Shown here piece after piece: positions 60,977-63,767 of a DNA stretch of 64,000 nt. The position numbers were made by a program, and so were the translations under genes. How positions within the stretch are numbered: position 1 is the stretch's first letter; every line of letters begins with the position of its first letter. The stretch spans positions 3,526 to 67,525 of the IMG/VR virus record IMGVR_UViG_3300017914_002582. One strand, written 5' to 3'. The notes below the pieces were generated by a model that was not told where the DNA came from, did not search any database, and saw nothing but the letters and a program-made list of their open reading frames with translations. This DNA is from a virus (taxonomy: Duplodnaviria; Caudoviricetes).

Positions 60977-60984
60977 TATAAATA
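60977..60984 (+). promoter_or_regulatory. Late promoter for gp3
   Basis: TATAAATA; the ATG at 60990 is 6 nt after its end. Confidence 0.85.
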
Positions 60985-61497: not shown

Positions 61498-61947
61498 ATG
61501 ATGAATGTAGAACAAATACTTGAAATGTGGAAAGATGATTCCACTATAAACGAGATTGACCTAGATGTTAGCTCTTTAGAGATGCCTAAACTCCACTCAA
61601 AATACCTTGAGCTTCACACCGTTGCTAAACTGCAATTAAAGAGATTGCGACTTAAGATTGCCTCATTGAAAAAAGACAAGTGGCTATATTACACCGGCAA
61701 AATGACTAAAGAAGATATGGATACTCGCGGGTGGGACTACGATCCATACAAAGGTGGGACTAAACCACTTAAAGGTGATATGGATTACTACTATGATGCT
61801 GATCCAGAAATACAAGAACTTGTTGCTAAAATAGAATACCAAGAGACTTTAGTAGAAACCCTTGATGAAATTATGACTAATATACGCTGGAGACACTCTA
61901 CGATTAAAAACATAATCGACTGGCGTAGATTCACATCTGGAGGATAA
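61498..61947 (+). CDS. uvsY: Recombination mediator UvsY
   Basis: ILEMWKDDS.I, SLEMPKLHSKYL, KWLYYTGK, LKGDMDYYYDADPEI, WRHSTIKNIIDWRRFTSG. Confidence 0.95.
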   Translation: MMNVEQILEMWKDDSTINEIDLDVSSLEMPKLHSKYLELHTVAKLQLKRLRLKIASLKKDKWLYYTGKMTKEDMDTRGWDYDPYKGGTKPLKGDMDYYYDADPEIQELVAKIEYQETLVETLDEIMTNIRWRHSTIKNIIDWRRFTSGG

Positions 61948-61951
61948 TTTA

Positions 61952-62067
61952 GCCCTAGTAGTTTAATGACAGAACCCCACACAGTTGAGTAAAGAGATAC
62001 TGCAGATTTCTACACATAAGTGAACTTGAAGTGAGGAAGTGCCGGTTAAAGTCTGGCCTAGGGCGCC
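61952..62067 (+). ncRNA. tRNA-like RNA with an enlarged anticodon domain, about 115 nt
   Basis: Acceptor GCCCTAG/CTAGGGC (61952-58 / 62058-64), U8-A9, D-stem GTTT/GAAC, T-stem GCCGG/CTGGC with 7 nt loop TTAAAGT, then G-C-C. About 65 nt lie between the D and T arms. Confidence 0.75.
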
Positions 62068-62073
62068 TTTTGA

Positions 62074-62081
62074 TATAAATA
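62074..62081 (+). promoter_or_regulatory. Late promoter upstream of the small ORF and uvsW
   Basis: TATAAATA; the ATG at 62087 is 6 nt after its end. Confidence 0.8.
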
Positions 62082-62086
62082 ATTCT

Positions 62087-62278
62087 ATGAGTGTAATAAT
62101 CAGACGTAAAATTACACGGAATAAAAGTTATACAGTTATTTTCTTCGATAAATATAACTATCATGTATGGCCAACAAATGACTATGAGCACGGTGAGATA
62201 CTTAAAATATTCAAACAAGATAAACCATACGATGGAATTATAAACGACTTTTCAAGATGGAAAAAATTAAGTGAGTGA
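62087..62278 (+). CDS. Small hypothetical protein, 63 aa
   Basis: MSVIIRRKITRNKSYTVIFF...; start chosen after the late promoter; overlaps the uvsW start. Confidence 0.6.
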   Translation: MSVIIRRKITRNKSYTVIFFDKYNYHVWPTNDYEHGEILKIFKQDKPYDGIINDFSRWKKLSE

Positions 62279-63767
62279 TATTGTTATTAGTAAACGCGAT
62301 GAAGTAGACATCATTGTGCATCCAAGTGATTCTGGTATTGTAATGGAGCTAAGTGAGTTCTTCACGTTTTATGTTCCGGGCTATAAGTTTGTACCTTCTT
62401 ATCGCAATAAGATGTGGGACGGTAAGATTCGTTTGTACAATACGAGAGATTATTCATTACCTAGTGGTCTATTATACCATGTAGAACAGTTTGCAGAAAG
62501 TAGAGGATATAAAGTTGAAAATAAAATTACCAAACGATCCACCGCTGTGGATAGCACTTACTTTGACGATTTTGACCTATGCAGCGGTGGGACTTCTATC
62601 AAGCCTTATGATTACCAATTACGGGCAGTCACCCACGCCATAAACAATCATAACACATTATTATTATCTCCAACTGGCTCAGGTAAGTCGCTTATGATCT
62701 ATCTGGCTTTACGTTGGTTTTTAAATACTTCTGATAAGAAAGCTCTCATCGTAGTACCCACTACATCCCTTGTAGAGCAGATGTGGAAAGACTTTGCTGA
62801 CTATTCTAGTAATGATGATTCATTTGATCCAGAGTGTGTACATCGAATTTATTCTGGTAAAGAAAAAGAAAACTTGACATCACGGATTGTGATAACAACT
62901 TGGCAATCCGTGTTTAAAATGCCGAGGTCTTGGTTTCAGAACTATGAGATGGTTGTCGGTGACGAAGCACATTTATTTAAAGCTAAATCATTGACTACTA
63001 TTATGGGACACTTAAAAAATGCTTGGCTTCGGATAGGTACTACAGGAACACTTGACGGTTCAAAGGTACATAAGTTAGTGCTCGAAGGTGCGTTCGGCCC
63101 TGTATACAATGTTACTGCTACTCATAAACTAATTGATGAGGGTAAGCTGTCTGATGTATCGATTGATGTATTAGCACTTACTTATTCAGATGAAGAACGA
63201 AAAGCATTTAAAAAGAAAACGTATCAGGAAGAAATATCGTATCTAGTCAGCCATGAGCAGAGGAATAAGTTTATACGAAACTTAGCGTTATCTCAAAAAG
63301 GTAATACACTTGTATTATTCAATCTTGTCGAAACGCATGGTAAGCCGCTGTATAAATCTATATCTGATAAAGCAGAAGATGGAAGAAAGGTATTCTATGT
63401 ATCTGGAGAAATTAAAGCGAATGATCGTGAAGCTATACGAGAAGCTACAGAAAAAGAAAACAACGCCATTATTGTAGCATCGATGGGTACATTCTCTACT
63501 GGAATTAATATTAAGAACTTACATAATCTTGTATTTGCCGCACCGACTAAAAGTCAAATAAGAGTTTTACAATCACTTGGTAGATCATTGCGTAAAGCAG
63601 AAAACGGTCAGCCTGCAAAGGTATACGATATATGTGATGATCTAAGTTGGAAGAGTCGTAAAAATTATACGCTACTACACGGAGTAGAACGCGTTAAGAT
63701 ATATGCAAAGGAAAAGCTGAAGTTTAAGACCCATCAGGTTCCAATGCCTCAGGATAAAACTTCCTGA
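62271..63767 (+). CDS. uvsW: SF2 DNA helicase UvsW
   Basis: KMWDGKIRL, PYDYQ, SPTGSGKS, VVGDEAH, GTTGT, GTFSTGINI, LQSLGRSLR; GTG start. Confidence 0.97.
   Translation: MSDIVISKRDEVDIIVHPSDSGIVMELSEFFTFYVPGYKFVPSYRNKMWDGKIRLYNTRDYSLPSGLLYHVEQFAESRGYKVENKITKRSTAVDSTYFDDFDLCSGGTSIKPYDYQLRAVTHAINNHNTLLLSPTGSGKSLMIYLALRWFLNTSDKKALIVVPTTSLVEQMWKDFADYSSNDDSFDPECVHRIYSGKEKENLTSRIVITTWQSVFKMPRSWFQNYEMVVGDEAHLFKAKSLTTIMGHLKNAWLRIGTTGTLDGSKVHKLVLEGAFGPVYNVTATHKLIDEGKLSDVSIDVLALTYSDEERKAFKKKTYQEEISYLVSHEQRNKFIRNLALSQKGNTLVLFNLVETHGKPLYKSISDKAEDGRKVFYVSGEIKANDREAIREATEKENNAIIVASMGTFSTGINIKNLHNLVFAAPTKSQIRVLQSLGRSLRKAENGQPAKVYDICDDLSWKSRKNYTLLHGVERVKIYAKEKLKFKTHQVPMPQDKTS

Follow-up and report, generated by a model that had tools for sequence, protein, structure and literature searches.

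What is the RNA that a T4-like phage encodes directly after its uvsY gene, in the shape of a tRNA and with a branched domain in the place of the anticodon loop? The window, by which we mean the whole stretch of DNA that was analysed, comprises 64 kb of a 67.5-kb viral contig from IMG/VR, which represents about 37% of a genome. Its source is an uncultured marine T4-like myovirus, and the nearest isolate for its UvsY protein is the Kyanoviridae phage C48C1, with 47% identity. The element proved to be a tRNA-derived, non-decoding, tRNA-like phage RNA gene. Its genomic setting, structure, distribution and mode of evolution bear on what such a gene may do, and are reported here together with the explanations that compete for it.

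Genomic context

The gene order in this region is tail tube, uvsY, tRNA-shaped element, late-promoter motif, a 63-aa ORF and uvsW, and the features located below lie on the + strand unless stated otherwise. The recombination mediator gene uvsY (61498..61947; Pfam UvsY PF11056, 94.5 bits) ends with a TAA stop codon at 61945-47, and the element begins 4 nt downstream, with G1 at 61952, as had been noticed in the first-pass annotation of this DNA. From G1 to the discriminator G, the whole tRNA-shaped RNA gene occupies 114 nt (61952..62065). It is followed by a 3′ trailer, CCUUUUGA (62066..62073), delimited by alignment with the other lineage in which the element is found. In this alignment, seven trailer bases, CCUUUUG, are absent from the other lineage, which has a single U instead, so that a 7-nt indel is located just outside the element; since the trailer differs in this way between lineages, no CCA is encoded. 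The T4-type late-promoter motif TATAAATA (62074..62081) then serves the next genes, and in relatives devoid of the element this motif directly abuts the uvsY stop codon. Neither a promoter of its own nor an intrinsic terminator preceding it was found for the element, the nearest late-promoter motif on its 5′ side being at 60977, which suggests that it would form the end of the tail-tube/uvsY transcript, as a 3′ extension of uvsY.

The uvsY/uvsW junction is an insertion hotspot, as it has also taken up a small ORF. This 63-aa ORF (62087..62278) constitutes a second insertion, present in the window lineage only and absent from two other contigs that carry the element, L004 and L013. It was inserted exactly at the ancestral uvsW start (ATGAGTG|ATATTG in L004 and L013) and took over that ATG. 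Because the ancestral ATGAGTG start was split in this way, the helicase gene uvsW (62271..63767; Pfam UvsW_N, ResIII, DEAD and Helicase_C) now starts at an overlapping GTG. The small ORF is a member of an unannotated family of small proteins (797 hits, no Pfam or PHROG). Two phages (L119 and L120) have a member within a tRNA array, flanked by tRNA-Gln and tRNA-Ile, and in L121 a member follows a pair of genes, one phosphatase-like and the other kinase-like, while four other contexts showed no nearby tRNA, so that the family has no firm link to tRNAs. The 200-nt gap between tRNA-Gln and the small-ORF homologue in L120 (1297-1500, +) adopts, on folding, a tRNA-like outline with a closing stem, a D-like hairpin, a large central domain and a T-like hairpin; this is a weak observation, as the fold is no more stable than those of shuffled sequence (z -0.37) and Rfam has no hit in the gap. 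In the 67.5-kb contig itself, with its share of about 37% of the genome, no other tRNA was found.

Three further observations concern the surrounding DNA. When the segment 60990-63767 was compared with the relative L083, protein identity reached 67% for the tail tube and 89% for uvsY upstream of the element and 96% for uvsW downstream, with DNA identity of about 74% upstream and 90% downstream. This sharp divergence step around the element suggests a recombination boundary near the uvsY/uvsW junction. In L013, otherwise a close relative, the uvsY frame followed from the aligned start (2501-2889) closes after 27 codons, which points to a frameshift or an assembly error. Finally, several 6-bp palindromes (TCATGA, GTTAAC, GCGCGC, GACGTC, CGCGCG, CATATG, AGATCT and ACCGGT) are absent from the whole 64-kb window, which suggests restriction-site avoidance.

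Detection and structure of the tRNA body

Searched on the region alone, the Rfam tRNA family (RF00005, gathering cut-off 29 bits) matched the element with 34.1 bits (E 1.3e-5). The match spans model positions 1-71 and has 50 nt inserted at the anticodon loop, and a search of the whole contig with this family returned the same 34.1-bit match (E 5.9e-7). Both the tRNA shape of the RNA and the excess of about 50 nt in its anticodon domain, as proposed at first pass, are thus confirmed. The accompanying prediction, that standard scans would miss the element, was also borne out: ARAGORN at default settings made no call, and the Rfam gathering scan of the whole window did not report it. Rfam does not report the copies in L004 and L013 as tRNA, even when as little as 351 nt is searched. 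We built a covariance model of the element, hereafter R1, which scores 134-140 bits in all copies. A tmRNA, with its tag reading frame and a tRNA-Ala-like domain that has G3-U70, was not recognised, since ARAGORN in its tmRNA mode found nothing and pair 3:70 is C-G.

The acceptor stem pairs GCCCUAG (61952..61958) with CUAGGGC (62058-62064) and forms 7 bp that are perfect in the window. Within this stem, the U-A of pair 5:68 in the window has a compensatory C-G counterpart in the other lineage, and pair 7:66, at the base of the stem, is G-C in the window and a G-G mismatch in the other lineage. Direct reading of the sequence places both U8 and A9, followed by a D-arm (61961..61975; GUUU / AAUGACA / GAAC) with a 4-bp stem that includes one G-U pair, and this arm is invariant in all four distinct sequences. 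A variable loop of 4 nt, AAGU (62037..62040), corresponds to a class I tRNA frame without a long variable arm. It leads into the T-arm (62041..62057; GCCGG / UUAAAGU / CUGGC), which has 5 bp and a 7-nt loop, the one G-U pair of its stem being G-C in the other lineage. [quoted passage not shown] The first-pass description of this body stands in full, from the 7-bp acceptor, U8/A9, the 4-bp D-stem and the 5-bp T-stem with its 7-nt loop to the deviant D and T loops (A at positions 19 and 56, T-loop UUAAAGU) and the non-CCA 3′ end.

Most of the nucleotides that make tertiary contacts in tRNA are kept, namely U8-A14, A15-U48, G18, A21, G46, U54-A58, U55 and G53-C61, the G19-C56 contact being lost by the presence of an A on both sides. 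Features that allow synthetases to recognise a tRNA independently of its anticodon include G3-U70, a long variable arm and G-1/C73. Pair 3:70 being C-G, the first of these is missing, and the other two are absent as well; under established identity rules, charging by anticodon-independent synthetases is therefore not predicted from the sequence. The D-arm sequence also occurs in ordinary phage tRNAs, for example in L091 and L104, and the body of the element is thus of the phage-tRNA type.

Anticodon arm and branched insert

In the anticodon stem, CCACAC (61977..61982) pairs with GUGAGG (62031-62036) to form 6 bp with an internal A-A mismatch. A stem had indeed been proposed here as CCCAC/GTGAG; the stem is retained, but is better read in the different register just given. 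It is the fastest-changing part of the element, with 5 of its 12 positions differing between lineages, one compensatory pair (31:39, A-U to G-C) and an A-A mismatch that is shifted by one position in the other lineage.

The anticodon loop is replaced by an insert of 48 nt (61983..62030), made up of a 2x1 internal loop, a helix and two hairpins. According to the predicted fold, helix P2 has 6 bp (61985-90 / 62024-29), hairpin P3 has 6 bp and a 7-nt loop, ACUGCAG, closed by a U-A pair (61993-62011), hairpin P4 has 3 bp and a tetraloop (62013-22), and the three meet in a small three-way junction. For the isolated domain, this branched fold has the lowest energy in every variant; in the context of the whole RNA this holds for two of three variants, the window copy lying 1.2 kcal/mol above its minimum. 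With -8 to -9 kcal/mol, the domain folds no more stably than shuffled sequence (z +0.25 to -0.7), so that thermodynamics alone does not establish the fold of the insert, and the exact form predicted by modelling is best called plausible. The TTGAGT/ACTTGA helix of the earlier description, with its inner and small hairpins, reappears as the minimum-energy fold of the domain, at an energy that shuffled sequences equal. The insert matches no Rfam family, the search for introns and ribozymes being negative at E values up to 10, and its junction with the stem is a 2x1 internal loop, not a bulge-helix-bulge.

The register of the apical loop, with its closing pair, is kept in relatives by a G-to-A change that converts G-U into A-U. 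In this loop, ACUGCAG, a C stands at the position of U33, and a canonical 7-nt anticodon loop with U33 is not found. The element has no decoding loop and, as it stands, cannot decode. An earlier reading of the inner loop as a Cys-type anticodon loop, CT-GCA-GA, had to be abandoned: the loop is ACUGCAG with U33 out of place, the CU-GCA-GA reading fails because the closing U-A pair would have to open, and bacterial tRNA-Cys has U73 where the discriminator here is G.

Several other candidates were tried on this segment and rejected. The sequence CTGCAG is present 37 times in the window for 9 expected, a four-fold excess that reflects codon phase, 33 of 35 coding sites being read as xCT GCA Gxx, so that the apical loop is not part of a genome-wide motif. 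An 8-codon mini-ORF starting with the ATG at 61966 was dismissed, as all differences between lineages are non-synonymous in it and it has no ribosome-binding site, and so was a minus-strand ORF (61955-62218), which crosses DNA absent from the other lineage. When antisense targets of the insert were sought within the window, the best duplex was no better than those formed by shuffled inserts.

Distribution and origin

Among 80 uvsY neighbourhoods taken from IMG/VR, the element was found only in the closest ones, with 89-100% UvsY identity. In the next clade (78-84% UvsY identity), the uvsY stop codon abuts TATAAATA and the uvsW start, the element being absent, and the same arrangement was observed in all the more distant relatives that were inspected. 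This distribution indicates a lineage-specific gain, and the sequences are best explained by a single gain of about 120 nt in one small clade, a clean loss in all others being less likely. The element is present in at least 10 metagenomic contigs from different samples, and its four distinct sequences fall into two deep lineages, one of the window type and one of the commoner L004 type. Scanning IMG/VR and metagenome contigs for its pattern yielded a single additional carrier, a Tara contig, the matches in L086, L108, L109 and L128 being due to chance, and look-ups of near-identical UvsY proteins added four more carrier contigs.

Searches for an origin of the tRNA body were negative within their scope. 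A blastn search of the element against 50,697 phage isolate records returned nothing similar; with its two halves, the same records gave no hit, or only chance and D-arm hits from which no isotype could be assigned. Model R1, applied to 97 loci, detected no diverged copy in the more distant uvsY neighbourhoods. The tRNA-Arg and tRNA-Glu of a 105-kb relative were considered as the source of the body and rejected on comparison, so that neither blastn nor comparison with the tRNAs of this relative identified a donor or an isotype.

Selection on the body and the insert

The mode of evolution of the element was assessed by comparing the window phage with an L004-type phage and by confronting, in Fisher tests, the divergence of the element with that of four-fold degenerate sites. 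Over the whole element, 14 of 114 positions differ (12%), without any indel, whereas 504 of 1080 four-fold sites differ in the 11 shared genes (47%, range 31-59%; p 1e-13). The difference holds against uvsW, the best-conserved neighbour, where 57-58 of 183-190 four-fold sites differ (31%; p 2.6e-4). Taken alone, the insert differs at only 4 of its 48 positions (8%; p 0.0015 against the uvsW four-fold sites), and all four differences are located in loops or are swaps between G-U and A-U. The tRNA body, excluding the anticodon stem, differs at 5 of 54 positions (9%; p 0.0013 against the same sites). Judged on these sequences, both the tRNA body and the insert are under purifying selection. Such a divergence of 12% without indels, compared with 47% at four-fold sites, argues against a neutral remnant or a decaying pseudogene. 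A recent transfer of a piece of about 120 nt between lineages would also lower divergence; we consider it unlikely, because the element occupies the identical site in both lineages.

The nature of the substitutions is in line with a conserved structure. Among the first three sequences, 15 substitutions were counted, 12 of which are structure-neutral, compensatory or pair-forming: four are unpaired, four form two compensatory pairs (5:68, U-A to C-G, and 31:39, A-U to G-C, in tRNA numbering), three swap a G-U for a G-C or A-U pair or the reverse, and one creates a pair. The remaining three break pairs, at the acceptor-base G-G and at the A-A mismatch moved by one step. The fourth sequence, L129, adds one change from G-U to A-U. 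Standard pairs fill 95% of the pair cells, and shifting the partners by one to three columns lowers this proportion to 24-50%. As it includes several G-U pairs, the fold is specific to the + strand. Covariation is weak in these two deep lineages with four distinct sequences, the observed score being reached in 27 of 500 shuffles. Homologues with compensatory changes, the lack of which was to count against the element according to the first-pass annotation, do exist, with two such pairs among the four sequences. The pattern expected of a pseudogene, with neutral-rate divergence, indels and stem-breaking changes, was not observed.

Discussion

On balance, the sequences incline us towards a processed, stable, non-decoding tRNA look-alike in which the conserved insert is the working part. 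We infer its transcription, processing, stability and action in trans, relying for the maturation steps on established tRNA-maturation pathways. Bacterial RNase P recognises the stack of acceptor and T-arm together with the elbow formed by the D and T loops. These substrate features are present in the element, with a 12-bp acceptor/T stack and a D/T elbow, through which the host RNase P would cut at G61952. An AU-rich trailer is a typical entry site for endonucleases, and the one that follows the element, which doubles as late promoter, may be cut in this way, before exonucleases would trim the 3′ end to G62065 and a host enzyme would add CCA. Some T4 tRNAs are likewise without an encoded CCA. 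These steps would yield a stable RNA of about 117 nt, in which the tRNA body may serve as a scaffold for processing and stability, and the insert as the working part, probably by binding a protein or by competing for a tRNA-binding factor. Such a decoy or protein-binding role is speculative. A more specific proposal, which we judge unlikely, is that host maturation enzymes excise and stabilise a 48-nt payload, and that the uncharged look-alike acts in trans on a tRNA-binding factor, for example by soaking up a host defence enzyme that attacks the acceptor ends or the bodies of tRNAs. If true, a payload acting in trans would represent a new kind of phage-encoded RNA effector.

Several observations nevertheless speak against the reading as a processed look-alike. 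The element is represented by only two deep lineages and four sequences, with a covariation score that 27 of 500 shuffles match, and the energy of the insert is no better than shuffled. The commoner lineage, with its G-G mismatch at the base of the acceptor, is not reported as tRNA by Rfam, and A and A have replaced G19-C56. No antisense target stands out in the window. The element is also narrowly distributed and is missing from the next-closest relatives.

The location of the element invites explanations in which its RNA would have no task once released. Its tRNA shape may only be a signal for processing by RNase P or RNase E, or for blocking exonucleases, and it would then act in cis as mRNA punctuation, setting the 3′ end of the uvsY message and uncoupling uvsW, which has its own late promoter. 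A position 4 nt past the uvsY stop and just before the uvsW late promoter, with neither promoter nor terminator of its own, suits such a role, for which tRNA-like structures are used in plant mitochondria (t-elements, PMC1920247), and bacterial operon mRNAs are also cut by RNase P (PMC11143913). Yet this signal would need the acceptor/T-arm half only, whereas the D-arm does not vary and the insert, with 4 of 48 positions differing, equals the body in conservation, and the nearest relatives keep uvsY and uvsW abutting without any such element. For these reasons, we regard punctuation in cis as fairly unlikely. The same location, directly 5′ of TATAAATA and at a point where identity shifts sharply (74% upstream, 90% downstream), would also fit an element acting at the DNA level, as a protein-binding or upstream element of the uvsW late promoter or as a recombination site, the tRNA shape being incidental. 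A full-length match to a tRNA covariance model, compensatory changes and a pairing that relies on G-U pairs present only in the + strand RNA make this hardly credible, and the same promoter operates in relatives that do not have the element.

Two other explanations start from the anomalies of the tRNA itself. A decaying tRNA pseudogene, or a neutral insertion or recombination remnant without function, would account for the missing anticodon loop, for the loss of G19 and C56, for the acceptor G-G mismatch of one lineage with its failure in Rfam detection, and for a narrow distribution at a hotspot that also took a small ORF. It is, however, difficult to reconcile with 12% divergence and no indels, when four-fold sites of every neighbouring gene differ at 31-59%, or with two compensatory pairs among changes that are otherwise mostly structure-neutral, and we hold it to be improbable. 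A decoding tRNA interrupted by a short intron had been offered as an option in the first-pass annotation, and it could take the form of a tRNA(UGA) after removal of 43-50 nt or of an apical GCA used as Cys anticodon. With a lowered threshold and intron search, ARAGORN did indeed return a tRNA-Ser(UGA) with a 43-nt intron at 32/33 and the loop CUUGAAG, a loop that can be built in the other lineage too. Position 32/33 is nevertheless not a known intron site. The insert of 43-50 nt is far below the size of group I and II introns, with no group I core, no bulge-helix-bulge and no Rfam ribozyme or intron hit, and no splicing mechanism is known for it. Moreover, bacterial tRNA-Ser needs a long variable arm, here of 4 nt, and tRNA-Cys needs U73, here G; an apical loop carried by an arm of some 18 bp lies out of reach of the decoding site; and the sequence of the insert is conserved, which is unexpected of a spacer. 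This option was thus not upheld, and a decoding role through an intron appears very improbable.

Comparison with known systems helps to situate the processed look-alike that we favour. With class I tRNAs (RF00005), it shares the 7-bp acceptor, U8, the 4-bp D-stem, the 5-bp T-stem with its 7-nt loop, the 4-nt variable loop and most tertiary-contact bases, the window copy scoring above the family cut-off. It departs from them by the 48-nt branched RNA that stands for the U33 anticodon loop, by A19/A56 and by the lack of an encoded CCA. Its architecture is identical to that of the engineered tRNA scaffold, which retains the acceptor stem and the T- and D-arms of a tRNA and carries a foreign RNA where the anticodon loop would be; chimeras of this kind are processed and accumulate in E. 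coli (PMC3753655). Unlike this man-made construct, the element is natural, phage-encoded and conserved, and its own processing is predicted. In the open-access papers searched, we found no account of a natural tRNA frame whose anticodon loop had given way to a branched domain.

Phages are known to encode tRNAs, and in a few of them unexplained tRNA-like stable RNAs occur as well. Classical stable RNAs of phages offer other points of comparison, beginning with RNAs C and D of T4, whose function has been unexplained since the 1970s. The resemblance drawn at first pass holds for size: T4 rnaC (species 1) and rnaD (species 2) are annotated with 139 and 119 nt, and they are, like the element, phage-encoded stable RNAs, with the reservation that the stability of the element is our deduction. 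RnaC, moreover, ends in a canonical T-arm and an acceptor-like stem. Homology was not supported, either by blastn or by model R1, which in the T4 locus (L111) matched only tRNA-Ile, with 21 bits, leaving rnaC and rnaD unmatched. Neither of the two has a significant Rfam family: the best match, of rnaC to tRNA-Sec, has 17.5 bits where the cut-off is 47, and the tRNA family does not appear among the matches of either RNA. Both belong to the T4 tRNA cluster; the element follows uvsY, outside any tRNA cluster, and keeps the full tRNA body including the D-arm. T4 rnaC and rnaD are thus an analogy to the element, not its relatives.

RNase P also matures phage RNAs that are not tRNAs, such as the C4 antisense RNA of P1 and P7 and the phage RNA M3 (PMC11143913), which are cut from longer transcripts by means of a tRNA-like acceptor feature and in which the loops do the work. 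The element differs from them in having no Rfam C4 match, no complementary target in the window and a far fuller resemblance to tRNA. The t-elements of plant mitochondria, tRNA-like elements for mRNA end formation (PMC1920247), are likewise tRNA-shaped and located directly 3′ of a coding region, and the element could direct endonucleolytic end formation in the same way. T-elements are, however, organellar or eukaryotic and usually degenerate, whereas the whole body and the insert are conserved here.

The element thus constitutes a clean natural case of a tRNA frame left intact while the decoding loop has been swapped for another conserved RNA module, with selection measurable on both parts. 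If it is processed as predicted, the laboratory trick of the tRNA scaffold would also exist in nature, and the element would provide a small, tractable model for the roles of non-decoding phage tRNA look-alikes. From a practical point of view, it is a reminder that such genes escape default tRNA and Rfam scans.

Other tRNA-like genes with the same D-arm

The D-arm of the element was also encountered in other unusual tRNA-like genes, all of them missed by ARAGORN. In L098 (11306-11376, +), a gene of 71 nt combines this D-arm with the same unusual T-loop, UUAAAGU, and has a 7-nt anticodon loop, GCUUGCG, without U33; model R1 scores it at 37.9 bits. Genes of 65 nt in L090 (3529-3593, -), L092 (5103-5167, +) and L107 (874-938, +) have an anticodon arm reduced to a 5-bp hairpin with a 3-nt loop (GCUCC AAA UGGAG). 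In jumbo-phage contigs of 200-420 kb, a gene of 78 nt (L097:3546-3623, L100:6442-6519 and L101:11529-11606) associates the D-arm with an over-long anticodon arm, and is located amid other hits of the tRNA model.
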